Part shown: one piece after another, positions 1 through 25,471 of the stretch
Layout of the letters: each line of letters opens with the position of its first letter
Position numbering within the stretch: position 1 is the stretch's first letter
From: Ruminococcus sp. UBA7477
GTDB taxonomy: Bacteria; Bacillota; Clostridia; Oscillospirales; Ruminococcaceae
Assembly (NCBI GenBank): GCA_002479715.1
Contig: DLOT01000045.1
Location: forward strand, 1-36,945
Direction: 5' to 3'
DNA length: 36,945 bases
Notes under the pieces: model-generated
The model's database searches: none
Seen by the model: the letters and a program-made list of their open reading frames with translations, nothing else
What the model was told of the DNA's origin: nothing
Made by a program: the position numbers and the translations under genes

Positions 1-243
1 ACATAGCATCAATAAATGTATGCCCGTTGCTTTTGCAACCTCACTCAGACCAATCAGCACAGAGCCTTTCTGCCACAGATTATCGAGAGCATTGTAAATT
101 GCCTTTTTATCTTCATCATTCTGGACCGAGAGATTTTCAAGTACGGACTGCATACCGCCCTTGATCTCATCATCCATAGCAGAAATGCTGTCCTCAGAGA
201 CACCGAGGATCTTTGCAACTTCCGCAAGCTGTTCATTAGTCAT
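1..243 (-). CDS. hypothetical protein, N-terminal part only (gene runs off the window start); conjugative-element context
   Basis: My own minus-strand translation from the ATG at 243..241 gives MTNEQLAEVAKILGVSEDSISAMDDEIKGGMQSVLENL..., open to base 1. The start overlaps the topB stop by 8 nt, which suggests translational coupling. It is absent from the ORF track because there is no stop inside the window. Confidence 0.5.
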   Translation of the reverse strand, partial: MTNEQLAEVAKILGVSEDSISAMDDEIKGGMQSVLENLSVQNDEDKKAIYNALDNLWQKGSVLIGLSEVAKATGIHLLMLC

Positions 244-2257
244 TTTTGTTACTCCTTTCCGTATTCCAGTTATAATAGGTCTTTCCCTGGTAATTGTTTT
301 CAGCGATTTCGGGTAAAACTACCGTTTTTCTGCCCCTTGAAGTGTAGCTTGTGGACTTTCCGCTGAGAAGTCCCTTGACCTGAGAATCAGAAAGCTCCAC
401 GCCGTAGACTTTAGCGATATTCATACCGCACTTGCCCTTGCAGTAATAGCCATACTTTCCCTTGAAAACATCTTCTCCGCACTTCGGACATTTGCCGATA
501 GGTTCGTGAGAATCGTCCGAAAGAGAAACAGACTTGTCTGCCGAGCCGTATTTACTGCACATATCACGGATATTCTGCTCGATTTCTTTCATAAAGCTGT
601 CAGCGGAATACTGTCCATGTTCTACCTGTTGCAGCTTTGTTTCCCATTCAGCAGTCAGCTTTGCGGACTTCACTTCATCGGGAACAACCTTAATAAGCTC
701 CTTTCCCTTATCTGTTGCACGGAGCTTCTTGCTGTCACGCTCTACATAGCCGTTTTTGACAAGACTTTCAATGACGGCAGCTCTTGTGGCAGGAGTGCCA
801 AGACCTTTCTTTTCGGTATCTTCATCATATTCCTCATTTCCTGCACGTTCCATAGCCGAAAGCAGAGTATCTTCCGTGTATGGCTTCGGAGGAGAGGTGA
901 AGTGTTCGCCCTTGCTTGCCTGTACCGTGAAAGCCTGTCCCTCAGATACCGCAGGCAGAGATTTCTCATCATTCTTTTTATCACTCTGCTTGATATATGC
1001 TTTCCATCCCATTTCAAGGACGGATCTGCCTGTTGCCGAAAACTCTGTATCATTACATATAGCCGTAATTTTCACAGCTTCATACTTATGTGCAGGAGCA
1101 GAAGCACACATCAGTTTTGTGGCTATCAAAGTGAGAATATTCTTTTCTCCGACAGGCAGAGCATCGAGGTCAGCCGTTGCAATATTGCTTGTGGGAATAA
1201 TTGCATGATGCCCCGAAACTTTACTGTTGTTGATAACCTTGCTTATATCGGGAGTATGCGAGATACCAAACCCGAAATAAGTATCACAGAGCTTTGCAAC
1301 ATCGAGCGCCGTCTGAGCCATATCATCGGACAGATATTGACTGTCCGTGCGAGGATAAGTAACGAGCTTACCCTCATAGAGCGACTGAGTGTAGTCAAGT
1401 GTCTGCTGTGCCGTGTAGCCGAAAGTCTTGTTTGCTTCTCTTTGTAGCGTAGTAAGATCGTAGAGCTTAGGAGCTTTATCGGTCTTGACTTCACGCTTTA
1501 CAGAGGAGATAGTGACCTCAGCGCCGTCACAGGCATAAACAAGATTATTTGCAGTTTTTTCATTATCAATTCTTGCAGAAGAAAGAATGAAATTACCGCA
1601 GTTAAGGTCAGCCGTGTAATACTTCTGCTTCACAAAGCCACACACTTCGGAATCACGCTGAACGATCATCGCAAGCGTAGGTGTCTGCACTCTGCCGATG
1701 TTGAGTTTACAGCCATAACGAACAGAAAATAGTCTTGAACCATTCATGCCAACAAGCCAATCGGCTCTCGCTCTTGCATATCCTGCCGAGAAAAGATTAT
1801 CGTATGCACTCATAGGCTTCATATTTTTGAGTGCTTGCCTGATAGACGAATCCTCCAAAGAAGAAACCCATAAACGCTTGACAGGCTTACGACACCGAGC
1901 CATATTGTAGACATATCGGAAAATACACTCGCCTTCACGATCGGCATCAGTTGCACAGATAATCTCCGTCACGCTGTCGCTGTTCATTAGATTTTTCAGT
2001 ACATTGTACTGAGCCTTTGAGCTGTCTGTGACCTTGAAAAGCCACTTGTCGGGTATCATAGGGAGCTGAGAAAAGCTCCACTTATGATCCCAGCCGTTGC
2101 CATAGTCATTCGGATATTTCAGACCAACAAGGTGTCCGACACACCATGAAATGATGTAGCCGTTGCCCTCTGTATAGCCTTTCTTTGCGGTATTCGCACC
2201 GATCACGGAACTGATTGCACGGCTTACACTCGGCTTTTCACCGACTATTAAAATCAT
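236..2257 (-). CDS. topB: DNA topoisomerase III (type IA), conjugative-element type
   Basis: 673 aa. Toprim N-terminus MILIVGEKPS with an acidic DADREGE cluster. Active-site Tyr motif LVTYPRTDSQYLS. C-terminal Cys4 zinc-ribbon CPKCGEDV...YYCKGKCG. Confidence 0.93.
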   Translation of the reverse strand: MILIVGEKPSVSRAISSVIGANTAKKGYTEGNGYIISWCVGHLVGLKYPNDYGNGWDHKWSFSQLPMIPDKWLFKVTDSSKAQYNVLKNLMNSDSVTEIICATDADREGECIFRYVYNMARCRKPVKRLWVSSLEDSSIRQALKNMKPMSAYDNLFSAGYARARADWLVGMNGSRLFSVRYGCKLNIGRVQTPTLAMIVQRDSEVCGFVKQKYYTADLNCGNFILSSARIDNEKTANNLVYACDGAEVTISSVKREVKTDKAPKLYDLTTLQREANKTFGYTAQQTLDYTQSLYEGKLVTYPRTDSQYLSDDMAQTALDVAKLCDTYFGFGISHTPDISKVINNSKVSGHHAIIPTSNIATADLDALPVGEKNILTLIATKLMCASAPAHKYEAVKITAICNDTEFSATGRSVLEMGWKAYIKQSDKKNDEKSLPAVSEGQAFTVQASKGEHFTSPPKPYTEDTLLSAMERAGNEEYDEDTEKKGLGTPATRAAVIESLVKNGYVERDSKKLRATDKGKELIKVVPDEVKSAKLTAEWETKLQQVEHGQYSADSFMKEIEQNIRDMCSKYGSADKSVSLSDDSHEPIGKCPKCGEDVFKGKYGYYCKGKCGMNIAKVYGVELSDSQVKGLLSGKSTSYTSRGRKTVVLPEIAENNYQGKTYYNWNTERSNKND

Positions 2258-2315
2258 AATTTATCACAACCTTTCTTGAAATGCGGTAATTTACGGGCTA
2301 ATCCGCATTTTGCTA

Positions 2316-2344
2316 TTGATTTTTGTTTTGGGGTGTGGTATAAT
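2316..2344 (+). promoter_or_regulatory. sigma-A type promoter for the Rpn/PDDEXK gene
   Basis: TTGATT (2316..2321), 17-nt spacer, TGgTATAAT with the -10 at 2339..2344. It lies about 38 nt upstream of the ATG at 2382. Confidence 0.45.
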
Positions 2345-2381
2345 GGAATTGGTAAATGTAAAGAATAAGAGGTATATACCG

Positions 2382-3227
2382 ATGACTGATTTAAAAGCAG
2401 CACTGACTCCCGAAGAACAGCATAAAAAAGACCTGGAACGTTTGGAAAAAATGCGTCCTCTTGATGATGATCTTATGAGGGAACTATTCAGAAACAATAT
2501 TCCTCTCGCTCAGTTCGTTCTTCGGATTATGACCGGTAAAGACGATCTTGTAATTACATCTGAGGAAACACAGTATGATATGGAACGTTTGTTGGGTGCA
2601 AGGTCAATTTGTTTGGACGTTCTCGCAACAGACAGTGAGGGACGAAAGTTCAATCTTGAAATTCAAAGAGCTGATATGGGCGCAACACCTCAGAGAGCAA
2701 GATACCATTCCAGTGCAATGGATATTGAGTTTTTATCTGCAAAACAGAATTTTGATGAACTTCCGATTACATATGTTATTTTCGTAACTGAAAATGACGT
2801 GCGTAAGGGCAATCGTCCTGTTTACACGTTTGAAAGAGCAGATATACTTACAGGTGAATCCTTTGGTGACGGAGAGTATATTTTGTTCGTCAATGGTGCA
2901 TATACTAATCAAGAAGATAATTCAGATTTAGCCAAACTGATACATGATTTCAGATGCAATAATGCTGATGATATGTACTTTGATTTAATGGCTGAAAGAA
3001 CACGTTATTACAAGAAATCCCCGAAAGGAGTGAGCCATATGTGCAAAATTATGGAAGATATGAGAAATGAAGCTGCTAAGGAAGCTGAAACCCAAGAGAA
3101 AATCAGAATTGCACTCAGAATGCTTTCTGATGGAACATTGACGAACGAGCAGATTGCAATGTTTACTGCACTTCCTATCGAAAAGATCGAGGAGCTTGCA
3201 GCTCAGTTATCTTCTATTACCGCATAA
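2382..3227 (+). CDS. Rpn-like PD-(D/E)XK nuclease family protein ('putative transposase', PDDEXK_2-like)
   Basis: The core CLDVLATDSEGRKFNLEIQRA...ITYVIFVTENDV matches the D...E-x-Q/K nuclease core of this family. The C-terminal tail IRIALRMLSDGTLTNEQIAMFTALPIEKIEEL is also typical. I moved the start to the ATG at 2382 (AAGAGG 8 nt upstream) rather than the track start at 2310. Confidence 0.8.
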   Translation: MTDLKAALTPEEQHKKDLERLEKMRPLDDDLMRELFRNNIPLAQFVLRIMTGKDDLVITSEETQYDMERLLGARSICLDVLATDSEGRKFNLEIQRADMGATPQRARYHSSAMDIEFLSAKQNFDELPITYVIFVTENDVRKGNRPVYTFERADILTGESFGDGEYILFVNGAYTNQEDNSDLAKLIHDFRCNNADDMYFDLMAERTRYYKKSPKGVSHMCKIMEDMRNEAAKEAETQEKIRIALRMLSDGTLTNEQIAMFTALPIEKIEELAAQLSSITA

Positions 3228-3239
3228 CCACACCCACAC

Positions 3240-3274
3240 AAGCACATTCCCCAATATGGGGAGTGTGCTTTTTA
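3240..3274. terminator. bidirectional intrinsic terminator between convergent genes
   Basis: AAGCACATTCCCC-AATAT-GGGGAGTGTGCTT followed by TTTT. One G-U pair in the stem. Confidence 0.65.
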
Positions 3275-3805
3275 GTTCTCTCTGCTATCTTTATCCAACT
3301 CCATCAGATCGTAAAAAGCAAGATTTACAGGGTATCTGTAGTTACCCGTTTCATCACCGATGTAGCCTGCCTGCTGAAATTCAGCCAGTATCTCTGCCGC
3401 CTTGTCATGATCTACATCAAGGTAATCTCTGATAAACTTATTAGAGATGTACTTTTTTGAAATACTGTAAAGCAGAAGATTTCTTATACTCTTTGCAGAA
3501 ACAGTTGTAATGCTGTTTAATGGAGCAAAATTATTCTTATGTTTAGAAGAACTTTCCTCTACAGAAGTCATATCTTTCAGATCCTCCATTGTACAAGCAG
3601 ACTTGCTCCTGTCCGCAGGAGTTATACAGCCATCGTCCGGCTCATCGTAATCATAGAAGTTGAAATCTTCCTCATCATCACCGTACTTGTCACGGAAACG
3701 CTCGTTGATCTCGCCGTTGCCCTCACCGATCTTATATGCGAGATACGCTACACCCGACACAACACCGAGTCCCAAAATACCCTTAATAATCTTCTTTGCT
3801 TTCAT
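3272..3805 (-). CDS. membrane-anchored hypothetical protein with acidic linker and a possible FtsK-gamma-like winged-helix C-terminus
   Basis: 177 aa. N-terminal TM segment IIKGILGLGVVSGVAYLAY. Acidic stretch DDEEDFNFYDYDEPDD. The C-terminus KKYISNKFIRDYLDVDHDKAAEILAEFQQAGYIGDE resembles the FtsK gamma wHTH pattern, but the match is weak. Confidence 0.65.
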   Translation of the reverse strand: MKAKKIIKGILGLGVVSGVAYLAYKIGEGNGEINERFRDKYGDDEEDFNFYDYDEPDDGCITPADRSKSACTMEDLKDMTSVEESSSKHKNNFAPLNSITTVSAKSIRNLLLYSISKKYISNKFIRDYLDVDHDKAAEILAEFQQAGYIGDETGNYRYPVNLAFYDLMELDKDSREN

Positions 3806-3971
3806 AATAAAAACCTCCGTTAATGTAATTCATTGTTTCTTTTTGCGCTTCTCCTTTTTTGAGGAACGCTATTTCAATCAGATAATGTATCCCTGCCACA
3901 AGTGCAAGAATAACTGTTATCACCATGATTTCAGGCAGATGTTTAAACAGTGCTATGCAGTCTATCATCAT
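3783..3971 (-). CDS. small hypothetical membrane protein
   Basis: 62 aa with one hydrophobic helix (IMVITVILALVAGIHYLI). Same strand as its neighbours, with a 23-nt overlap on the next gene. No recognisable family. Confidence 0.35.
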   Translation of the reverse strand: MMIDCIALFKHLPEIMVITVILALVAGIHYLIEIAFLKKGEAQKETMNYINGGFYYESKEDY

Positions 3972-3980
3972 ACTTCTCCT

Positions 3981-4421
3981 TTACCGCAGATATTTGACCC
4001 ACCGATTTTTGAACTCATGAGGAATATTCTGTTTTTTGTTTCGATTACCTGTCCAATTCATACCGCCTGCCTTGCCCTCGTTTATGAAACCACTTGCTTT
4101 CAGACTTGTACCACTTTCGGAAATCAGCGTATATGTGATAGCTTTTGTATATCCCATTGCTTTAGCGATACGGCAGCAAGCGCCGTAAAGCATTGAACAA
4201 GCGTTATATGTTCCGTCAGTACAAACCCTGAGAATTTCACAGGTAAACCCGTTATCAAAATACCGTGAAACAGGTCTGCCACAGATAGCAACACCATGAA
4301 TAGTTTCTCCGTCAGATACAGCAATACAGAATTTACAGCCGACAGGTGCATTATGATGCCGATGATAGCGGTTTACATAGTCGCAGGCTGTTCTGTATGA
4401 TCGCTCCCGAATACCTTGCCG
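3981..4421 (-). CDS. XF1762-like small acyltransferase-fold protein; canonical start codon missing
   Basis: The track gives only 3981..4193. My translation shows the same frame open from 4421: RQGIRERSYRTACDYVNRYHRHHNAPVGCKFCIAVSDGETIHGVAICGRPVSRYFDNGFTCEILRVCTDGTYNACSMLYGACCRIAKAMGYTKAITYTLISESGTSLKASGF... The HRHH / CTDG / ACSMLY / GY..TYTL..E.GTSL.A.G pattern matches what I recall of the family. There is no ATG, GTG or TTG before 4193. An ATT sits at 4412..4410. Confidence 0.6.
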   Translation of the reverse strand, partial: RQGIRERSYRTACDYVNRYHRHHNAPVGCKFCIAVSDGETIHGVAICGRPVSRYFDNGFTCEILRVCTDGTYNACSMLYGACCRIAKAMGYTKAITYTLISESGTSLKASGFINEGKAGGMNWTGNRNKKQNIPHEFKNRWVKYLR

Positions 4422-4977
4422 TCATACAGTAAGACTTGTCCTGCCAAGCAATACCGCTTTCAAGCACATCTTTCAGCAGGATACCTTTGTCGGCAGGAAA
4501 AGAAGTAACAGGGATATTCGTCCAGTAACAGCGTTTGCGGTTCTGAGCCGATACCAAAGCTGAATTTATCATAATCGGCTCTACACCAAATCTCTTTGAG
4601 ATCTCGTCCTTGATATTTTGATGAATGGAGTAGTTATTTTCATAGAGAAAATACTTGCACTTGCTTTCATTCAAAGCTCTCACATACTCCATAAATAGCC
4701 TGAATCCCTCACCGTCAGAGGTGATCTCTCTGTTCTTTTTAGCCACGCTCCAGTATGTACAGGGGGAACCTCCGAGAAGAAGATCATATCCCTTAAACTC
4801 TGTAAAATCGCCGTCAAAAACATTCCCGTGATGAACAATATCGGGATAATTATTCTTTGAAACCGTGACAGCGTACTTGTCGATCTCAAAGGCATCATAG
4901 CACTCCACAGGCAGTCCGGCACGTTCAAGTGCCAGTCTGCCGCAGGAGATACCGTCAAATAAACTTAAAACTTTCAT
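4351..4977 (-). CDS. DNA (cytosine-5)-methyltransferase, C-terminally truncated (probable pseudogene)
   Basis: 208 aa. Motif I LSLFDGISCG, motif IV GGSPCTYWS, motif VI FLYENN and motif VIII QNRKRCYW are present. No target-recognition domain and no motifs IX or X (GNG). The reading frame ends inside the overlapping XF1762-like frame. Confidence 0.7.
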   Translation of the reverse strand: MKVLSLFDGISCGRLALERAGLPVECYDAFEIDKYAVTVSKNNYPDIVHHGNVFDGDFTEFKGYDLLLGGSPCTYWSVAKKNREITSDGEGFRLFMEYVRALNESKCKYFLYENNYSIHQNIKDEISKRFGVEPIMINSALVSAQNRKRCYWTNIPVTSFPADKGILLKDVLESGIAWQDKSYCMTARYSGAIIQNSLRLCKPLSSAS

Positions 4978-5379: not shown

Positions 5380-5440
5380 TTTATTCGTCCTGGTTATCGT
5401 CATAGAAATTGAAATCTTCCTCATCCCATTGTTTATTAGG
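5380..5440 (-). pseudogene. 3' remnant of a paralogue of the 3272..3805 gene family
   Basis: The minus strand reads ...NKQWDEEDFNFYDDNQDE*. There is a 25-nt match with 1 mismatch to 3651..3675, which encodes DDEEDFNFYDYDE. The frame has no start codon and meets an upstream stop after about 30 codons. Confidence 0.55.
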
Positions 5441-14464: not shown

Positions 14465-15189
14465 TGCGCGGACTTCTTTATAAAGAGTTTTGTCTTGGGA
14501 GAAAAAATCTGCTGGCCGTATTCGGTACAGAGTTGATATTTTCCATAACAATAGCTTTTCCGACCATTATGGACAAAGGCAAGGATATGAGCGCTGTTTT
14601 TAATATTCTGGGTTTTGCGGGCGTTGTTTTAATGTTTCTTATCATGATGATGTTCGTGCCGTCGATTTTTGATAATGACGAGCATAAAAAATGGGCATAT
14701 TTTATCTGCTCCTCACCGGAGGGGTGCAGGGGTCAGGTCGCCTCAAAATATCTGTTTGCCGTCATACTTTATATGATAGCTTTCGTCTGGGTCTATATCA
14801 TAAGCTCTGTTCAGACAGTTTTGACTGATGCGCCGAACTTCTCACTGATCGGGCTTTATATGATATGGATACTGATTATAATGCACTCCATTGAATTTCC
14901 GTTTATAACCCGCTTCGGCACCAAGCTTGGAAACAGCGTGAGAACTGTCATGTTCATGATGCTGGTCAATATCCTTTTAATTATCTTCGGCTTTGCGGAT
15001 ATCGAGGCAGTTCGTTCGCCAGAGGCATTCTTCAATTTCGTTGAAAAGCTTCTCGGAAAATCCGGGATGAGCAATCTGACCTCAATTTTTCTCGCTGTTC
15101 TTCCGTTTGCGGCAATTATCTGCTATCTAATCTCTTACCGCATTTCCTGCGCGCTTTACATAAAGGGGGCCGAAAGCTATGATAAATAA
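14464..15189 (+). CDS. ABC-2 type transporter membrane protein (second permease)
   Basis: 241 aa and polytopic. N-terminus MRGLLYKEF parallels MKGLIFKEL of the preceding gene. TGATG overlap. Confidence 0.7.
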   Translation: MRGLLYKEFCLGRKNLLAVFGTELIFSITIAFPTIMDKGKDMSAVFNILGFAGVVLMFLIMMMFVPSIFDNDEHKKWAYFICSSPEGCRGQVASKYLFAVILYMIAFVWVYIISSVQTVLTDAPNFSLIGLYMIWILIIMHSIEFPFITRFGTKLGNSVRTVMFMMLVNILLIIFGFADIEAVRSPEAFFNFVEKLLGKSGMSNLTSIFLAVLPFAAIICYLISYRISCALYIKGAESYDK

Positions 15190-16042
15190 ATCAGACAAAG
15201 CAACTGCTAAAAAGCTGTGCATATTCATTGCGCTTTCTCTGACGCTCAGCCTTCTGCCGGCACTCATCATCTATTTTACCGCAGGCTTTGAAAGCAAGGC
15301 AATGACTGTTTATTCTGTGCTGATGCCGTTTACCCCTGCGGCGTCTGCCATGCTCACACGCCTGATTTCCAAGGAGGGCATGGAGGATTCAATGCTCGTT
15401 CCCAAATTTTCCGGCAAGGGAAAATACTATATCCTCGCAGTGCTGCTGCCGGTTGTCTGTCTGATCCTTCAAATCGTCATTTTCTCGGCTGCATATATTG
15501 ACAGATTTGATCTTTCGCTGAGGATCAGATTTCTCGGGGTCACAAAACTCGGCTGGTTTTCAACGCTTTTTTATCAGATAGGTATTGGCTTGACCGCGTG
15601 CGTTTTAATGCTCGGCGAGGAGCTAGGCTGGCAGGATTACCTCTATCCGAAAATGCAAAGGGTATTCGGTAAGCCGATAACGCTTATCGCCGGCGGGATA
15701 GTCGTAGGTATATGGAACATACCGCTTGTTGTCAGCGGCCAGTATTTCGGCAACGTCAAGGATAAAGCGGCAGCAATCGTTCTTGCTGCCTTGATATGCA
15801 TATTGACCGAGGCAATATGTCAACAGCTGACCGAAAGCTCCGAATCGGTTATAACAGCGGCAATATTTCGCTCGGTAATTCACTTCTCATCTCCTGCATT
15901 CCTATCGCTTATCACTCTGGAGCAAAGGAAAATAACCGATCTTTTCAAATTCCATGCACCGCAGCTGGCGGCTTTGGCTTCCGTTGTTGTCTTCTGCATA
16001 GTATTTGTCGGAAGAAAAAACAAGCTTGCAAAGCAGGCATAA
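15179..16042 (+). CDS. CPBP (CAAX/Abi) family intramembrane protease-like protein
   Basis: 287 aa and polytopic. GEELGWQDYLYP resembles CPBP motif 1 (EExxxR, with R replaced by Q). FRSVIHF is a candidate second motif. AAGGGGG RBS. Confidence 0.6.
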   Translation: MINKSDKATAKKLCIFIALSLTLSLLPALIIYFTAGFESKAMTVYSVLMPFTPAASAMLTRLISKEGMEDSMLVPKFSGKGKYYILAVLLPVVCLILQIVIFSAAYIDRFDLSLRIRFLGVTKLGWFSTLFYQIGIGLTACVLMLGEELGWQDYLYPKMQRVFGKPITLIAGGIVVGIWNIPLVVSGQYFGNVKDKAAAIVLAALICILTEAICQQLTESSESVITAAIFRSVIHFSSPAFLSLITLEQRKITDLFKFHAPQLAALASVVVFCIVFVGRKNKLAKQA

Positions 16043-16062
16043 AACAAAAATGCGCAGACCTT

Positions 16063-16187
16063 AAGACAGGTACTCATAAAGAAGTTTTAGCCATAGCACT
16101 TATGATTTTCAGTCAAAAGTATTATGGCGTTTCTATTGACTTAATAGTTATTTGGTAGTATAATCCTAGTAAGAAAAATCAGAATTT
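16063..16187 (+). repeat. conserved 5' block, copy A (end repeat + hairpin + TTGACT-17-TATAAT promoter)
   Basis: I count 2 substitutions over 125 nt versus 24563..24687. Hairpin arms at 16090..16101 and 16117..16128. The -35 is at 16136..16141 and the -10 at 16159..16164. Confidence 0.9.
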
Positions 16188-16202
16188 TGAAGGAGAACTA
16201 TT

Positions 16203-16634
16203 ATGATTGATAAATCAAGAGAATACTGGCATGGAGATTCCGCCGATGACATTGATGAATTTTTAAGAGAATATTCTGAAATCGAAGCAATAGATGTAAA
16301 ACCTATAATTTGTCATTCTTGCGGAAATGAGCACCTTAATTTAAGAATTGATTATGACGAAGAAGCTATTCAAGTTAAATGTCCTAAATGTGGATATCAA
16401 AAAATAATATTGGATTGCGAGGAAGTATGGGAAGATGCAAATCCTCGATTAAGAAAGTGTCCGGAATGTAAATCCAAAGATTTCGATGTAAAAGTAGGAT
16501 TTGTACGACGAGAAAATGGAAGTGTAAAGTGGGTTTATATCGGAAGTCGTTGTACTAACTGCGGATTATTAGGTTCACATCTTGACTGGAAAATCAATTA
16601 CGAACCAACCAATGAAATGGAGAGCAACATATAA
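16203..16634 (+). CDS. hypothetical cytosolic protein with four CxxC pairs (two zinc-ribbons)
   Basis: 143 aa. CHSCG...CPKCG...CPECK...CTNCG. GAAGGAG RBS. AT-rich relative to its neighbours. Confidence 0.7.
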   Translation: MIDKSREYWHGDSADDIDEFLREYSEIEAIDVKPIICHSCGNEHLNLRIDYDEEAIQVKCPKCGYQKIILDCEEVWEDANPRLRKCPECKSKDFDVKVGFVRRENGSVKWVYIGSRCTNCGLLGSHLDWKINYEPTNEMESNI

Positions 16635-16732
16635 ATTCTGATTTATGTGAGCAATCGAATATTAACAATAAGCCCCGAAGCAATTATCAATAATTACTTT
16701 GGGGCTTAAACTTCTTTATGAGTATCGAACTA
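16630..16732 (+). repeat. conserved 3' block, copy A (multi-frame stops + hairpin + inverted end repeat)
   Basis: It aligns to 25321..25422 with about ten substitutions and one 1-nt gap, by hand count. Hairpin AAGCCCCGAAG (16670..16680) / CTTTGGGGCTT (16697..16707). Confidence 0.85.
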
Positions 16733-16768
16733 ATCACAAGTCCGCGTTTTTTGTACTTTTTATGACGA

Positions 16769-18286
16769 TCACAGCGTCTTTCCGACTCCCTCGCCGGAGT
16801 TGAAGCCGAATATTGCCACACAAATCAGGTCGGCAATAAACAGTGCCGCCAGAGTTGCACATATAGTGATGCTCTTTTTTCTTCCAATCTTGTCGAGAAG
16901 AACGCTTATTCTCGGCGCAGCTATATACACTCCGAACAACCCGCCCAAGCCGAAAGCCACCAATCCGACAAGATATATCCTTCCGTTGAGATTCATAAAA
17001 TCCGAGTGATAGTCCCAGTAGCTGGCGTTGCTGAAATAGTCCAGGATCCAGCTTGCGGCATACTCAACAACACCGCACAACAGCATTCCCAGAACAAAAA
17101 GCTTTCCCTTGTTCGCCTTGAAATGACCTAACAGGAAAATAATAATGACTCCGCCTACTCCGTAGATCGGCAGCCACGGGCCGTAAAGCGTTCCGCGGTT
17201 AACCAGAACATGATCGCGAACAAGATACAGCAGCACTTCCCATGCCCAACCGACAAACGCAAAAGCGAAGAAAAAAGCTATATAGTCAATAAGATTATAT
17301 TCTCCGCGCAGCCTTCTGACATTGGCGGTAACACTGCCCCTAAGCTCATCAACAGTCAGAACGGTGTCATCCAGCGAAAAGCTTTCAACCGACTCCTGTG
17401 ATACAACAAACGACTCTGAGTTAAAGCCTTCTTCAACAAAATTAGCCTTGTTTTCAGACCGCTCTCTCAGATAAAAATAAGTTTCAGTCTTAAGCTGTGC
17501 CTCAAGCGGCAGAGCAACAGCAAGACCTGCGATCGGCACGGCCTTGAGGATCCATATGTAAATAAACGAAAGGTCGGTCAAAAACATCTTCATCTTGTAA
17601 CCGGCAGTCATCTGTTTTGAAACCGTCTTGGCCTCACGCCAGCTTATCTGAGGGTTCTCTGCCAGAAGATAAGGAACCATTCTGTACTGATACGATTTAT
17701 ACACCCAACCTACAAATGTCAGCGCCCACATCGCAAGGGTAAGATTGTAGATTATCATGACCTTAATCTCATTTTTAAGATACTTCTTGTGAAACGGCGC
17801 AAAGCTTCGGCGAATAAGTGTTTTCTTCTGAAATCTGGCTTCCATGCAGTATCTGCACTTTCCTATTACCAGAACGTTTTGAATAAACAGCTTTGCCGCA
17901 CCAAGGATAAAGCCTGTAATCAGCAACATCGCGATAACCTCGCCGCTGTTTCGTTTGAAGTACGCAAAGTTGGCTGCCAGAAGGTTTACAAGCCATGAAT
18001 AGTCGCTCGAAAAGGCGTTGACCACCGCAGAAAACACCTCTCCGCCCACTTTACCCATTTTGTCTGTGACATGGTCAGCTATATATGTATCTATTATCTC
18101 CATATTGTCTTGAGAAACGGAAGTTTCAATACCTATATTGTCTATCTGAAAGCTGGTCTGACCGCCGCCGTCCGCGCCAAGAAATGAGAACAAAAAGCAT
18201 ACGGCAAAGAGCGCCGCCCATGCCATGAAGCCTTTCCTGAATGCGGTTTTCCAAGCGTTTGATCGTAAGGTCTTGTAGCTCCACAT
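16769..18286 (-). CDS. polytopic membrane protein: DUF975-like N-terminal half fused to a CmpB/DUF1113-like ('putative ABC-transporter type IV') C-terminal half
   Basis: The N-terminus MWSYKTLRSNAWKTAFRKGF is typical of DUF975. The C-terminus FVGWAWEVLLYLVRDHVLVNRGTLYGPWLPIYGVGG fits PF06541. Start set at the ATG at 18286 (AAAGGAGGG RBS). The track start is 18307. Confidence 0.7.
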   Translation of the reverse strand: MWSYKTLRSNAWKTAFRKGFMAWAALFAVCFLFSFLGADGGGQTSFQIDNIGIETSVSQDNMEIIDTYIADHVTDKMGKVGGEVFSAVVNAFSSDYSWLVNLLAANFAYFKRNSGEVIAMLLITGFILGAAKLFIQNVLVIGKCRYCMEARFQKKTLIRRSFAPFHKKYLKNEIKVMIIYNLTLAMWALTFVGWVYKSYQYRMVPYLLAENPQISWREAKTVSKQMTAGYKMKMFLTDLSFIYIWILKAVPIAGLAVALPLEAQLKTETYFYLRERSENKANFVEEGFNSESFVVSQESVESFSLDDTVLTVDELRGSVTANVRRLRGEYNLIDYIAFFFAFAFVGWAWEVLLYLVRDHVLVNRGTLYGPWLPIYGVGGVIIIFLLGHFKANKGKLFVLGMLLCGVVEYAASWILDYFSNASYWDYHSDFMNLNGRIYLVGLVAFGLGGLFGVYIAAPRISVLLDKIGRKKSITICATLAALFIADLICVAIFGFNSGEGVGKTL

Positions 18287-18388
18287 ACTGATATGCCCTC
18301 CTTTCACTGTCTCCGACTGATGTTATTCCACAGCCCTGATCTCTAGAATCCTTACGGAACTTATATCCGTTCAAATATGAAGTGTCTT

Positions 18389-19096: not shown

Positions 19097-20785
19097 TTAT
19101 GACTGCTTTCTCTTGCGGATCTCCTCTATATCGATACCGAACTCTCTGAATACTGTAGACGCATAGCTATGTTCCTCAGGCAGACCCTTTTCGATCCTGT
19201 ATATGCGTTCCTCAGTCTGTTTATTGACCTTCGCAACGATGCTCACCGTTTTTGATCGGCAATCCTGCTCGGAGTTAAACCTGTCGCACATATACGCAAG
19301 CTCAGTCAGATGGGTCGCAAAAAGCCCTCTTACACCGATAATTATAAATATCCTCACAAGCTCCGCCGCAATGTCAACACATTCTCTGGGAGTTGTGCTT
19401 TGAACAGACTCGTTCATCAAAAGCAGACTGTTTTCTGACACGGTGTCGCTTATTGTCTTGAACTGCTTGATCTCAGTGGTGAAGCGGCTGGTGTTGATCC
19501 CCGTTTCTTCTTCCTTCGGAAAATGTGTATAGATAAAATCAACAGGCGAGATCTCGCAGCTCTCACAGGGAACGTAAAAACCGGCCTGAGCCAAAACCTG
19601 AGTTATTCCCACGGCTCGGATAAAGGTCGTCTTTCCTCCGTTGTTAGCGCCGGTCAGAATATAAAACCTTCCGTCTTTGTCAAAGGATATGTCATTCCGG
19701 ATAAGCAGAGAGTCGCCCTTTTTATCCTTCCGCGAGGAGATCGCAGCCTTAAACAAACACAGATCATATACATTTTTCATCTCTGACCTGCGCTCGTCCA
19801 TCGGTAGCAAGGTCGGTCTGCACATAGGAACGCCTTTAAACTCGGCAGTTTTTATCAGCTTGATAACTCCTTCGTAAAGATCCAGCTGATCCTGCAAGCC
19901 CGGAATATCCTCGAAGCCGATCCGCTGATATGCCTTGAGTACCTCAGTCAGCTTTTTGATATAGCCATCGGTTATTTTGGAAAGACCTTTGAAAAGCTTA
20001 GCGTCAACCTCGTTGATAACTCTGTCCTTGTCGTACGGATTGTCGTTTGTGTATCTTCTGAAAAGACCTCCCTCTACCTGATTCGGATTTTTCTTTGCGT
20101 TAAAGTATAATATCTTATCAAAAACGCTCGGCTTTTCAATGTATTCGGCGTTAGAATATCCTACTATCCCCGCACTTATCGGGGTCATCATTTCATCGAA
20201 ATTTATTGCGACCGTAACGCTCTTGATTCGGGTTTTCAGACTTTCATTAAGCTCGGCAACAAGAGCGCAGAGCTTTTGATAATCCTCGCTCATGTAAATT
20301 TCTTCAAAGAAGCCAAACAGACGCTTCATTGCCGCAGATCTCAGACTCTCACCCGTTTTCTCATAAAACGTGTGCATTTCGTCAACACAGGAGATATAGC
20401 ATCCAAAAGCATCAAGCTGCGCTCTGAACTCATCAAACGACGTAGGATTTGAAAACTTCCGCATACCGGCACGGTCGTTATCAAGCATCAGCGTAATTAT
20501 CCTGTAAACAGTCGGCATAAGCTTGGGCAACGTAAGAAAGTCATCAATTGCATCAAGCCGGTAGTTAATAATGTCGGGGTCAGTGTTAAGCTCGCTCAGA
20601 AGCTTCACAGTGCTGTACTGATTAGTCGGGCTGAGTATTGACGCGACCTTTTGTATCTCAAGATTGTCCTGATAGCTTTGCGGCAGCTTCTCCAGCTTCA
20701 GCCTTCTCGCCTTTGCCTGCTCGCGCTTTTCATCGGACGGGTATAGCAGATCCAGAACCGAATTCTGATATTCTTTCGTTTTCAT
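19097..20785 (-). CDS. MutS-related ATPase (MutS domain III/V only; no mismatch-binding domain)
   Basis: 562 aa. Walker A ILTGANNGGKTTFIRAVG, LLLMNESVQSTTPRE (Walker B region), ATHLTELA. No N-terminal GxFxE mismatch-recognition motif. No Smr domain. Confidence 0.85.
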   Translation of the reverse strand: MKTKEYQNSVLDLLYPSDEKREQAKARRLKLEKLPQSYQDNLEIQKVASILSPTNQYSTVKLLSELNTDPDIINYRLDAIDDFLTLPKLMPTVYRIITLMLDNDRAGMRKFSNPTSFDEFRAQLDAFGCYISCVDEMHTFYEKTGESLRSAAMKRLFGFFEEIYMSEDYQKLCALVAELNESLKTRIKSVTVAINFDEMMTPISAGIVGYSNAEYIEKPSVFDKILYFNAKKNPNQVEGGLFRRYTNDNPYDKDRVINEVDAKLFKGLSKITDGYIKKLTEVLKAYQRIGFEDIPGLQDQLDLYEGVIKLIKTAEFKGVPMCRPTLLPMDERRSEMKNVYDLCLFKAAISSRKDKKGDSLLIRNDISFDKDGRFYILTGANNGGKTTFIRAVGITQVLAQAGFYVPCESCEISPVDFIYTHFPKEEETGINTSRFTTEIKQFKTISDTVSENSLLLMNESVQSTTPRECVDIAAELVRIFIIIGVRGLFATHLTELAYMCDRFNSEQDCRSKTVSIVAKVNKQTEERIYRIEKGLPEEHSYASTVFREFGIDIEEIRKRKQS

Positions 20786-22615: not shown

Positions 22616-22682
22616 GTATTCACTTCACCGGATGCTCTTAAAGATCGTATGCTAGGGATCTATGAGCTATTCGGTGAGCAAT

Positions 22683-22775
22683 AATAACGGGGGCCGGATG
22701 TTTTTCGGCTGAGATAGAGCGAATCGACGCTCTGACCGCACCTGATATGGGTAATGCCAACGTAGGGACAATATG
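22683..22775 (+). promoter_or_regulatory. TPP (THI-box) riboswitch
   Basis: ACGGGGGCC...GGCTGAGA...ACC..ACCTGATATGGGTAATGCCAACGTAGGGA contains the conserved CUGAGA, ACCUGAU and GCGUAGGGA-type cores. It sits upstream of a thiamine-transporter gene. Confidence 0.85.
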
Positions 22776-22785
22776 TAGCATTTTT

Positions 22786-22842: not shown

Positions 22843-23424
22843 ATGAAAAACAAAAAACTTCTTCAGCTTGTTGAAGGAGCAGTTATGATCGCCCTTGCGA
22901 CGGTCCTCAGCTTTATACGCATCTACAAGCTTCCTTGGGGAGGCTCTATAACTCTTCTGTCAATGCTGCCGATCGCAATTTTCAGCATACGACATGGCGT
23001 TGCAAAGGGCTTAGGCGTAGCATTTTGCTTCTCCCTGATCCAGTTTATCCAAGGTATAACCGACGGACTTTTCGGATGGGGTCTGACAACTATGAGTCTG
23101 ATAGGCTGTATTCTCTTTGACTACATACTCGCATTCACCGTTATCGGATTTGCCGGTATTTTTCGTAAGAAGGGCGTGGCAGGCGCTGTTACCGGAACGG
23201 CGATCGCATTGCTGTTAAGATTTGTAAGCCATTTTGCTACCGGCGTTATTATTTGGAAGTCGTTCGGTGAACTGTGGGACGGATTTTCTACCGATAACAT
23301 CTATCTCTACAGCCTTCTCTATAACGGATCTTATATGCTTCCCGAGATCATCTTCACCTGTATAGGTGCAGCTGTGCTTTACTCTATCCCGCAAACCAAA
23401 AAGCTTCTCGCCCCGCAGGATTAG
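22843..23424 (+). CDS. thiT: ECF-type thiamine transporter S component ThiT
   Basis: 193 aa with about 6 TM segments. The N-terminus LVEGAVMIALATVLSFI is typical. It lies directly downstream of the TPP riboswitch. Confidence 0.8.
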   Translation: MKNKKLLQLVEGAVMIALATVLSFIRIYKLPWGGSITLLSMLPIAIFSIRHGVAKGLGVAFCFSLIQFIQGITDGLFGWGLTTMSLIGCILFDYILAFTVIGFAGIFRKKGVAGAVTGTAIALLLRFVSHFATGVIIWKSFGELWDGFSTDNIYLYSLLYNGSYMLPEIIFTCIGAAVLYSIPQTKKLLAPQD

Positions 23425-24500: not shown

Positions 24501-24562
24501 TCGCTGCTTTTCCGACTGTGTAAAACACATTTCGTTAACAGAACATAAAAAAGTGTGGCATA

Positions 24563-24687
24563 AAGACAGGTGCTCATAAAGAAGTTTTAGCCATAGTACT
24601 TATGATTTTCAGTCAAAAGTATTATGGCGTTTCTATTGACTTAATAGTTATTTGGTAGTATAATCCTAGTAAGAAAAATCAGAATTT
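24563..24687 (+). repeat. conserved 5' block, copy B (end repeat + hairpin + promoter)
   Basis: I count 2 substitutions over 125 nt versus 16063..16187. The -35 TTGACT is at 24636..24641 and the -10 TATAAT at 24659..24664. Confidence 0.9.
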
Positions 24688-24714
24688 ATTTTGACTTTGA
24701 TTTGAGGTTACACT

Positions 24715-25332
24715 ATGAATATAATTCAATACTCAAGTAAGATAAAAGATTACTTACTTGCAAACGAAATAATTGATTTTACTGATAAATCAATAGCAAA
24801 TCTATCTAATGAGCTGCTAAATCTTTCAAAAGATAGGATAGATTTTATAAAGCAGACTTATGAATATGTTAGAGATAATATTTCCCATTCGGCGGATATA
24901 AATAACGATATGATCACCTGCTCTGCTTCGGAGGTACTGAAAGCAGGACATGGTATTTGTTTTGCTAAATCACATTTGTTAGCGGCTTTATTGCGTTATC
25001 AATCAATTCCTTGCGGGCTTTGTTATCAGAAAATTATTTTAGACGATGAAACTGCTCCTATATTGGTATATCACGGACTTAATGGTGTATATATTGAGGA
25101 ATGTGACAAATGGATACGGCTGGACGCAAGGGGAAATGTGAATGGCATAAATGCTCAGTTTTCAATAGAAACAGAACAGCTTGCGTATCCAATACGTTAC
25201 AATATGGGAGAACAAGACATATTCGTTGTGTATCCTGAGCCTGATGTGAAGATAGTTGAGCGTTTAAGGACAAATAAAACACGAACAGAGCTTTGGAACG
25301 ATCTCCCTACAGAGCTTGCGTATAAATTCTGA
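24715..25332 (+). CDS. transglutaminase-like (papain-fold) superfamily protein
   Basis: 205 aa. GHGICFAKSHLLAALLRYQSIPCGLCY holds the catalytic Cys region. YHGLNGVYIE...WIRLDARGN fits the His/Asp positions. Confidence 0.7.
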   Translation: MNIIQYSSKIKDYLLANEIIDFTDKSIANLSNELLNLSKDRIDFIKQTYEYVRDNISHSADINNDMITCSASEVLKAGHGICFAKSHLLAALLRYQSIPCGLCYQKIILDDETAPILVYHGLNGVYIEECDKWIRLDARGNVNGINAQFSIETEQLAYPIRYNMGEQDIFVVYPEPDVKIVERLRTNKTRTELWNDLPTELAYKF

Positions 25333-25422
25333 TTTATGTGAGTGATCGAATATTAACAACAAGCCCCGAAGCAGTTTTCAATAATTGCCTCGGGGCTAAA
25401 TTTCTTTATGAGTAGCGAACTA
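25321..25422 (+). repeat. conserved 3' block, copy B
   Basis: It aligns to 16630..16732. Hairpin AGCCCCGAAGC (25362..25372) / GCCTCGGGGCT (25387..25397) with one mismatch. Confidence 0.85.
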
Positions 25423-25471
25423 CACCACGCATTTTCGTTTTTTATACAGTTTTGAGCAGCATACTCTCAGG

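Follow-up and report, generated by a model that had tools for sequence, protein, structure and literature searches.

The closest described systems to the element reported here are the mobile insertion cassettes (MICs), whose published definition comprises terminal inverted repeats (TIRs), a target duplication and passenger genes with no transposase nearby, and one of which, mic-qnrD, has its own promoter, a Shine-Dalgarno (SD) sequence and a 2-bp duplication (PMC3913671). The present family was recognized from two copies, A and B, on a 36,945-nt stretch of Ruminococcus sp. UBA7477 (contig DLOT01000045.1), the whole of which is termed the window; labels from L001 onward refer to the stretches and contigs compared with it. 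In each copy an open reading frame (ORF; the cargo) is held between a promoter-bearing left arm and a right arm, and we conclude that these units are most probably small, non-autonomous transposable elements of the MIC type, mobilized in trans and forming an insulated expression unit with modular cargo. We file the family as MIC-like because every part of the published definition (TIRs, no transposase nearby, target duplication, passenger genes) appears, as judged from sequence, to be present.

Like MIC231 of Bacillus cereus and mic-qnrD and mic-qnrS2 of Proteeae/Aeromonas, the units have imperfect inverted repeats, no transposase inside or nearby, a short target duplication, and passenger genes that vary between similar ends. 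MIC231 has a known cognate insertion sequence (IS), IS231 (PMC3913671), whereas none is known for this family. The family differs from MICs in several further respects: its conserved arms are 100–125 nt long and include a near-consensus promoter as well as one hairpin per side; insertion is specific to the loops of terminator hairpins; cargo diversity is far higher (∼35 families in ∼45 copies); cargo junctions are ORF-precise, at a conserved inner inverted repeat, and arms that have diverged can share a cargo that has moved between them; and the hosts are strictly anaerobic Clostridia, with the elements on the chromosome.

Correia elements (CREE) of Neisseria are small TIR elements without a transposase, with a short AT duplication and with promoter or terminator signals. 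The SPRITE repeats are terminator-like (PMC10969869). [quoted passage not shown] The units described here normally carry a gene, and coding units measure 0.5–1.7 kb, so that MITE is not an apt designation; only the cargo-less derivative of ∼200 bp (L057, L079-83) fits it. No published description of the family was found, by concept or by literal repeat sequence, within an incomplete literature search, in agreement with an earlier reading of the window made from its letters alone (the sequence-only reading), which did not recognize a described repeat family. Four features are new in comparison with known MICs and MITEs: arms that are long and look functional, targeting of terminator loops, a cargo diversity like that of integrons, and an exchange of cargo that is precise and independent of the arms.

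A family of units with conserved arms

The two window copies have near-identical flanks around unrelated ORFs. Their 5′ blocks (16063–16187 and 24563–24687) are 98% identical over 125 nt, while the 3′ blocks are 89% (16630–16709 and 25321–25400) and 87% (16702–16732 and 25392–25422) identical. At the ends of copy A lie 22-nt inverted repeats (16071–16092 and 16703–16724; 95% complementary, one mismatch), and a 15-mer core of the TIR, CTCATAAAGAARTTT, occurs four times in the window, once per end of copies A and B, against an expectation of 0.31; a count of four was reached in none of 100 shuffles. End alignments place the conserved limits of copy A a few bases beyond those first proposed, at about 16061/16065 on the left and about 16730/16734 on the right. 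The promoter, TTGACT-17-TATAAT, matches the consensus at 11 of 12 positions. The left hairpin (16090–16128) folds at −15.2 kcal/mol (z −4.0) and the right hairpin at −21.1 kcal/mol on the plus strand (z −6.7) and −21.9 kcal/mol on the minus strand (z −5.4). The left block ends at 16187, 15 nt ahead of the cargo ATG at 16203, and the right block shares its first bases with the stop codon (16632–16634). The two units stand out as AT-rich, with a GC content of 0.27–0.39 against 0.43–0.50 in the flanks. No transposase or integrase adjoins copy A or B, the only recombination-type gene of the window being a PDDEXK_2 ORF 13 kb away. Every feature listed in the sequence-only reading is borne out at the coordinates given there.

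Near-identical 125-nt blocks 8.5 kb apart might also arise from a segmental duplication in this genome or an assembly artefact, but the cargo and the outside flanks of A and B are unrelated, and dozens of assemblies made independently, in separate studies and from various hosts, contain these arms; this explanation is refuted, its probability being close to nil.

A pattern embracing the four window ends, run against a single genome of each species, returned 68 stretches, and family members were then defined by a profile search with the aligned arms. The remaining stretches, from unrelated phyla, have the short pattern only and are chance matches. Far from being limited to two loci, left and/or right arms are present in ∼50 of the 68 stretches, from at least 30 metagenome-assembled genomes (MAGs) with at most seven loci per MAG, and the catalog of copies and cargo that the sequence-only reading had called for now holds ∼35 mutually unrelated protein clusters among ∼45 cargos. 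Nearly all of the MAGs are labeled Ruminococcus (the majority), Oscillospiraceae or Clostridia, and they come from ruminant, deer, rabbit and human samples. Two family loci, L052 and L028, are in MAGs labeled Alistipes (Bacteroidota); because the TyrS-like neighbor of L052 is also found at the Ruminococcus MAG locus L003, mis-binning is more likely than cross-phylum transfer.

Complete units (n = 33) have a left arm of ∼128 nt, a right arm of ∼100 nt and an interior of 13–1460 bp with low GC, giving unit sizes of 0.2–1.7 kb across the family. All but one (32/33) hold one or two sense ORFs, which start 15–20 nt past the left arm and end where the right arm begins or a few bases into it; beyond these ORFs and a ribosome-binding site the cargo contains hardly any other sequence. 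The TIRs are ∼30 nt long and imperfect, with a core (CTCATAAAGAAGTTT) followed outward by one of two slightly different tips of ∼11 nt, termed X (AAAGACGGGTG, usually left) and Y (TTAGTTCGATA, usually right); they are kept in 32 left and 47 right aligned ends, and the ∼30-nt ends with their tips are represented by (A)GACGGGTGCTCATAAAGAAGTTT and (A)GTTCGATACTCATAAAGAAGTTT. Left arms are also matched in reverse by the right-arm profile, at low score but from end to end, and the arms are therefore long, degenerate inverted repeats. The left hairpin is retained in 21/21 aligned copies, with compensatory changes at 3/17 pairs, and the right hairpin has 13 pairs, seven of them with compensatory changes; the two hairpins are unrelated to each other in sequence. 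The −35 and −10 boxes are nearly invariant throughout the family, with an extended −10 (TGTATAAT) in most copies. The description of the unit as a self-contained, insulated expression unit, first put forward from copies A and B, fits this combination of a conserved promoter and two compensated hairpins.

Searches of phage and plasmid collections with the whole unit (blastn) gave no match, and a scan of IMG/VR with the TIR pattern gave a single chance match in a coding region; the family is thus not evidently phage- or plasmid-borne. No Rfam family matches the arms, and no attC-like match was obtained there.

Target sites in terminator hairpins

Mobility is documented at one orthologous position in the Ruminococcus flavefaciens group, downstream of a fused MFS/spermidine-synthase gene, which is empty in L076-78 and occupied in L029, L030, L057 and L079-83. 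The empty site reads ...AAAAGCGGCTCCGGATAAACGAAGCCGCTGTAATTTTT... (L076: GGATAAACGAAG), and the occupied site in L029 reads ...CTCCGGATAAA, then the element (GACAG...CCCTC), then TAAATGAAGCCGC..., such that GGATAAA precedes the element and TAAATGAAG follows it. The L029 element occupies the loop of the hairpin AGCGGCT..AGCCGCT and is flanked by TAAA at either end. This comparison between empty and occupied sites shows a true insertion, in the loop of a bidirectional intrinsic terminator, with a duplication of no more than 4 bp (TAAA). The first of three readings offered from sequence alone, that of a non-autonomous TIR element with cargo, is supported by the orthologous empty site, by ∼50 loci at unrelated positions, and by the lack of a transposase among the cargo proteins and of one recurring within ∼4 kb of the loci.

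The same target geometry is found across the family. In the end alignments, the limits of conservation are [T/A/C]AAA|GACGGGTGCTCATAAAG on the left and ...CTTCTTTATGAGTATCGAAC|TAA on the right; the junction tetranucleotides are [T/A/C]AAA on the left and TAA[A/T/G] on the right. Beyond them the flanks are locus-specific, and the left flank is the inverse complement of the right, an A-run coming first and a T-run last; their longest exact complementary run averages 8.7 nt, compared with 6.1 nt (maximum 7.0) for mismatched flank pairs. When flanks are rejoined, the insertion point falls in a terminal hairpin loop at 23/25 distinct reconstructed sites, whose mean free energy is −15.1 kcal/mol versus −7.4 kcal/mol for shuffles. 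Both window sites likewise give a hairpin with the insertion point in the loop, and the reconstructed site A, ...GCGCAGACCT(TAA)TCACAAGTCCGCG..., has the order A-run, stem, loop, stem, T-run (−12 kcal/mol, z −3.5). Sixteen of the 24 elements with both neighbors called lie between convergent genes, 15–50 nt from the stop codons.

The search for empty sites, also suggested by the sequence-only reading, succeeded in part: one such site was recovered, in another species (L076-78), and site A itself is occupied in the sister strain (L073; 97.5% identity to the window), where the right flank is the same as in the window. A metagenome scan for empty sites with the protein flanking site A returned only relatives of 28–36% identity, and among orthologs of the site-A flank at 57–61% identity the synteny is lost, so that site A can be scored in the sister strain alone.

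These results bear on the possibility that the arms are ordinary repeated intergenic terminator/promoter DNA, vertically inherited, homogenized by gene conversion and immobile, with ancient cargo differences. The arms do carry transcription signals in an intergenic position, and site A is occupied in the sister strain too. This account is nevertheless very improbable: it is contradicted by the orthologous empty site with an intact hairpin and a junction duplication, by unrelated cargo at one site and identical cargo at unrelated sites, and by an interior GC content below that of the surroundings. The arms are also no more alike within than between genomes (left, 0.77 vs. 0.77; right, 0.78 vs. 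0.80), and concerted evolution of arms within genomes was not seen in this comparison. The corresponding reading of the blocks as a terminator/promoter intergenic element is a description of what the arms probably do, and not an account of how they arrived.

An invertible, phase-variable segment, in which the TIRs would be invertase sites flipping a promoter-bearing unit, is scarcely more credible. Inverted repeats do flank a promoter, and in a minority subfamily (L008, L032, L051, L054, L038, and L028) the X and Y tips have changed places, along with the TIR core next to them, with respect to the interior that holds promoter and cargo; this is the arrangement that an inversion of the interior between the TIR cores would produce. 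The repeats enclose promoter, gene and terminators together, however, so a flip would not switch the cargo; a single orientation is seen at orthologous sites (L029/L030/L057/L079-83; L039/L050), and no invertase was found in the window or near the 50 loci. An inverton is rejected on this anatomy and on the one orientation at all orthologous occupied sites. A palindrome-associated transposable element (PATE) with hairpin ends, derived from IS200/IS605, was also considered and is ruled out by the TIRs, the junction duplication and the unrelated hairpin sequences.

Several autonomous elements enter palindromes in a comparable way. IS30 goes into a hot spot that is nearly palindromic, at its central 2 bp, and makes 2-bp direct repeats (PMC9333248), a target geometry (short duplication, palindrome center) that fits this family by analogy, the duplication length being ambiguous here; neither an IS30-type gene nor a matching inverted repeat was found in the window and loci examined. 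IS1630, as Calcutt 1999 is cited in PMC3317919, targets inverted repeats of variable sequence; it is reported to duplicate the whole inverted repeat (16–26 bp), in contrast to the present family, in which the hairpin is split and no more than 4 bp are duplicated. Elements targeting repetitive extragenic palindromes (REP) or bacterial interspersed mosaic elements (BIME), such as the IS110-family ISPpu9, insert into extragenic palindromes (PMC12288879). Such elements are autonomous, usually without TIRs or duplications, and directed at a specific repeat family, in contrast to the present targets, which are unrelated terminator hairpins sharing only their shape and an AT-rich loop.

Clustering of all ORFs in the neighborhoods (∼4 kb) of 50 loci revealed no recurring protein, and the co-occurring recombinase or transposase for which the sequence-only reading advised a search was accordingly not found there. 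No autonomous partner element was present in the 68 genome stretches or the one viral stretch matched by the TIR pattern. No transposase or recombinase with matching ends was found in the stretches compared, and mobilization in trans is for this reason an inference.

Irregular copies also occur. Loci with a large interior or a right arm alone (L030, L032, L037, L045, L051, and L063) were checked and represent ordinary cargo, truncations or decayed copies. In the decayed copy L045, a right arm (1273–1363) has no detectable left arm, and a 216-aa ORF upstream of it (297–947, minus strand) is reverse-oriented and has an HNH-like CxxC...H motif pattern. L023 (340–2100) is a tandem pair in which a first unit, with left arm and cargo and without right arm, is followed by a second target-hairpin left half and then by a complete unit, an arrangement that suggests unequal recombination or repeated insertion at one site. 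In L010 the right arm is interrupted by a palindromic insertion of ∼60 nt (356–417; GGAAACGCCGATTAAATCACGCC...GATTTAATCAGTGTCTCC), which may be a nested miniature repeat of another family.

Cargo and its exchange at the inner inverted repeat

Every cargo is bounded by a short inner inverted repeat of 12–14 nt, AAATC[G/A]GAATTT at the end of the left arm and its inverse complement AAATTCTGATTT at the start of the right arm. In several units, including copy B, the cargo ORF runs into the right arm and stops at the TGA of the repeat.

The orthologous site in the R. flavefaciens group occurs in four states: with no element (L076-78), with a 381-aa cargo (L029), with a 120-aa cargo (L030), and with a cargo-less element of ∼200 bp (L057). 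The latter, a form that the sequence-only reading had proposed to look for, is identical to L079-83, is present in several samples, and keeps both inner repeats and a remnant SD. L029 and L030 share a right-arm variant (98%) and not their cargo, the left arm of L030 being partly deleted, and L004 and L060 have the right flank and right arm in common with different cargo. Arms that are 98% identical surround unrelated cargo in L018/L058, L063/L064 and window copies A/B, and the same alpha/beta hydrolase cargo (95% identity) is found in L023 and L065, whose insertion sites are unrelated. In L086, cargo A lies elsewhere in the chromosome and is identical at 441/445 positions (99.1%), with a left arm that is identical at only 95/133 (71%), and the change in identity relative to copy A falls exactly at the left-arm end, i.e., at the inner repeat. 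L086 is from the same sample as L073, in which the right end at site A is the copy-B variant. These comparisons show that cargo has been exchanged independently of the arms, with its junctions exactly at the inner repeat. A second reading from sequence alone, that of cassettes exchanged at conserved flanks, is thereby supported; it and the TIR-element reading are not alternatives, and act at two nested levels.

Across 28 elements, a 14-bp helix between the two inner repeats is pairable in 96.9% of cells, and one position on the sense strand is G-U in 23, A-U in four and G-C in one. A stem between the 5′ and 3′ untranslated regions, serving as an RNase III site or as a stabilizer, is speculation. 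A hairpin in the first 31 nt of the right arm was considered as an attC analog and is not supported by the consensus fold. One two-ORF unit, L027 (element on the minus strand, 1994–3371), encodes a 215-aa protein without known function and a 146-aa GNAT protein, and its inter-ORF spacer (interior ∼650–722) reads AAACTTTGATTTAT-15 nt-AAAATCGTAATTT, i.e., a right-type followed by a left-type inner repeat. This spacer could be either a cassette-wise addition (an integron-like junction) or a collapsed palindrome of right and left arms.

Integron cassettes share several of these traits: they are compact, with about one ORF, tight boundaries and very diverse cargo that is often without assigned function or rich in GNAT proteins, they have short inverse-complementary repeats on the two sides of the ORF, and hairpin-forming DNA is involved. 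They differ in that no IntI, attI or attC was detected here (in the window and loci), and in that these units stand alone at scattered positions, each having a promoter and hairpins of its own, with terminal inverted repeats and a target duplication like those of a transposon. A classical integron cassette system does not describe the family, given the lack of IntI and attI in the window and loci, the promoter in each unit, and the solitary units (apart from the L023 tandem pair).

A related alternative is an integron-like, site-specific cassette system, in which a tyrosine or serine recombinase encoded elsewhere would integrate circular units at a TAAA core and a second recombination at the inner repeat would swap ORFs in a resident promoter/terminator dock, the crossover partners being the joined palindromic element ends and the terminator hairpin as a target that is folded or palindromic. 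In favor of this, the joined ends are palindromic, as is the target, and crossover could take place at a core made up of the duplicated bases; the diverse cargo and ORF-precise junctions resemble integron cassettes, each cargo is flanked by inverse-complementary short repeats in the manner of core and inverse-core sites, identity breaks exactly at the inner repeat, and the L027 spacer is a composite of right-type and left-type repeats. Against these points, neither the window nor the ∼4-kb neighborhoods of 50 loci showed an integrase, the units have a promoter each and are not arrayed behind attI/Pc, and the inner repeats are inverted, so that simple recombination would invert rather than excise the cargo, and no inverted cargo was seen. 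Furthermore, the cargo-less L057, with both repeats and its remnant SD, looks like a deletion rather than a clean excision, and the L027 spacer can also be explained by palindrome collapse. We consider this system unlikely overall, and at the same time a live rival, especially for the cargo-exchange layer.

Less likely than not, and yet with a substantial chance of being right, is a two-tier gene-cassette system parallel to integrons, in which a mobile dock (terminator, promoter, terminator) would enter host terminator loops and a separate recombination activity would load and exchange ORF-precise cargo at the center of the inner palindrome (AAATCGGAATTT on the left, AAATTCTGATTT on the right). 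Cargo swap or capture could proceed by site-specific recombination at the inner repeat or by recombination across very short homology. If true, the two-tier system would mean that Gram-positive anaerobes of the gut capture and exchange genes by a new mechanism, in which each unit brings its own promoter.

The cargo itself is heterogeneous. Pfam matches include GNAT acetyltransferases (six), SMI1/KNR4-SUKH proteins (four) and Rce1-like CPBP proteases (three, one with an XRE regulator), as well as alpha/beta hydrolases, TfoX_N, a 4Fe-4S protein, SF0329, a DUF3267 zincin, a metallophosphoesterase, an M50B-like protein, and the transglutaminase-like protein of copy B; about half of the cargos have no Pfam match. 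Many look like immunity or detoxification functions (GNAT, SUKH/SMI1, CPBP), as far as family membership can suggest. Pfam identified no transposase or recombinase among ∼30 cargo proteins, and PADLOC gave no meaningful defense-system match for the 10 cargo proteins submitted.

The two window cargos are unrelated, that of A (143 aa) having weak Zn-ribbon matches in Pfam and that of B (205 aa) matching Transglut_core, and exact look-ups of both proteins found neither on record. Homologs of cargo A form 106 clusters without a Pfam family, with a conserved length of 143–144 aa and eight invariant Cys residues in four CxxC motifs. The AlphaFold2 model (pLDDT 91) is a double zinc ribbon; a fold search against the PDB gave no significant match, only weak similarity to Rpb9-type Zn ribbons. 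In other Oscillospiraceae, homologs of 64–73% identity are ordinary genes with their own promoter and a canonical terminator and without the arms, and their similarity to the window begins at the ribosome-binding site and ends at the stop codon. GC-rich palindromes (e.g., GGCTCCCTCCGGGAGGGAGCC) lie upstream of such armless homolog genes in L087 (2240–2400) and at the starts of L090-L095, where several independent contigs break; these suggest an unrelated, REP-like repeat family.

Proposed mechanism, coordinates and neighboring features

For the MIC-type element, we propose that a transposase encoded elsewhere in the genome would move the unit in trans; by analogy with IS30, this could be an IS30-like DDE enzyme. 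The element inserts into the AT-rich loop of a host intrinsic terminator, mostly between convergent genes, and duplicates 2–4 bp. As conservation and position suggest, the left hairpin would replace the terminator of the upstream gene split by the insertion, the promoter would drive constitutive expression of the cargo, and the right hairpin would stop both the cargo transcript and the convergent host transcript. With these roles, insertion would be near neutral for the neighbors, and the family could in this way spread accessory genes.

A number of observations weigh against this interpretation. Only one empty site was recovered, in a species other than that of the window and not at the window sites. 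The length of the duplication is ambiguous (2–4 bp), only the middle AA of the junction tetranucleotides being consistently shared across the family, and the junctions of copy A (TTAA and TAAT) are not identical; the true duplication may be 2 bp, with an element running A...T. A transposase or recombinase with matching ends was not found in the stretches compared. Both hairpins fail a simple intrinsic-terminator rule in the terminator scan, their U-tracts being weak. For the inner repeat, covariation in 28 elements does not exceed shuffled controls, so that a role in RNA or as a recombination site would be hypothetical. The ORF-precise cargo junctions are not explained by ordinary transposition. 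Finally, most of the data are MAGs and short metagenome contigs, and some comparisons (L073 and L086, from one sample) could mix strains.

If the interpretation is correct, Ruminococcus-type bacteria, which are key fiber degraders of the rumen and hindgut, possess a compact and abundant vehicle for single accessory genes, which would be placed under a strong promoter at nearly neutral chromosome positions. In its spectrum and in the way it turns over at fixed sites, the cargo is reminiscent of the cassette pools of integrons. The family could provide a route for spreading immunity or resistance genes in anaerobic Firmicutes, in which integrons are rare, and its ORF-precise junctions at the inner palindrome offer a new system in which to test how gene cassettes originate and are exchanged. 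The arms amount to a natural insulated expression cassette (terminator, promoter, ribosome-binding site position, terminator), and they suggest a safe-harbor insertion logic that could be applied in organisms that are hard to manipulate. The repeats also break metagenome assemblies, in which many cargo contigs are ∼1 kb long and L073 and L086 end inside arms, a point that matters for MAG annotation.

The neighbors of both copies are ordinary membrane, metabolic and housekeeping genes by Pfam, and coordinates are collected in Table 1.

Table 1. Features of copies A and B and their insertion sites, in window coordinates.
Feature	Position	Strand	Basis or remark
Host A-run and left half of split terminator hairpin	16041–16060	+	Just 3′ of the stop of the Rce1-like gene (15179–16042)
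Left junction tetranucleotide TTAA, target-site-duplication zone	16061–16064	.	Empty/occupied site comparison; family junctions
Left end: tip X (GACAGGTA) and TIR core CTCATAAAGAAGTTTTAGCC	16065–16092	+	Inverted repeat; 32 aligned left ends; tip typing
Left hairpin GCCATAGCACTT...AAGTATTATGGC, then GTTTCTATT	16090–16137	+	Folding; putative replacement terminator
Promoter TTGACT-17-TATAAT	16136–16164	+	Consensus match; family conservation
Inner inverted repeat, left copy AAATCAGAATTT	16176–16187	+	Last bases of left arm; 5′ boundary of cargo
Cargo A: SD GAAGGAG (16189–16195) and 143-aa ORF (16203–16634)	16188–16634	+	Four CxxC; double Zn ribbon
Inner inverted repeat, right copy AAATTCTGATTT	16633–16644	+	First bases of right arm; overlaps stop codon
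Right hairpin AAGCCCCGAAG...CTTTGGGGCTT	16670–16707	.	Folding, compensatory changes; proposed terminator for cargo and convergent host gene
Right end: TIR core GGCTTAAACTTCTTTATGAG and tip Y (TATCGAAC)	16703–16730	−	Inverted repeat; 47 aligned right ends; tip typing
Right junction tetranucleotide TAAT	16731–16734	.	Family junction alignment
Host right half of split terminator hairpin and T-run	16735–16756	+	Before the stop of the convergent CmpB/DUF975 gene (16769–18307, minus strand); also in L073
Copy B, whole unit	24561–25424	+	Between convergent YitT and radical-SAM genes; junctions TAAA and TACA
Copy B left arm	24565–24687	+	Window comparison
Copy B promoter	24636–24664	+	Window comparison
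Copy B inner inverted repeat, left copy	24676–24687	+	Window comparison
Copy B cargo ORF, 205 aa	24715–25332	+	Transglut_core (Pfam); stop is the TGA of the arm
Copy B right arm	25324–25420	+	Window comparison

Elsewhere in the window, a cluster at 236–4977, 13 kb from copy A, resembles the remnant of a mobile or foreign region, and no link between it and the element family was seen. It comprises a topoisomerase (236–2257, minus strand), the PD-(D/E)XK "transposase" family ORF already mentioned (PDDEXK_2, Rpn-like; 2310–3227), and a C5 DNA methylase (4351–4977), which is truncated to 208 aa and covers the model's first half only. Close to this methylase fragment, a 26-nt direct repeat (TCATAGAAGTTGAAATCTTCCTCATC; 96% identity) occurs at 3651–3676 and 5400–5425, 1.75 kb apart, and there is a weaker third copy at 20440–20465. 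Outside the element, a thiamine pyrophosphate (TPP) riboswitch (22677–22785; Rfam RF00059, 55.3 bits, barely over the gathering score) lies upstream of the thiamine transporter gene Thia_YuaJ (22843–23424).

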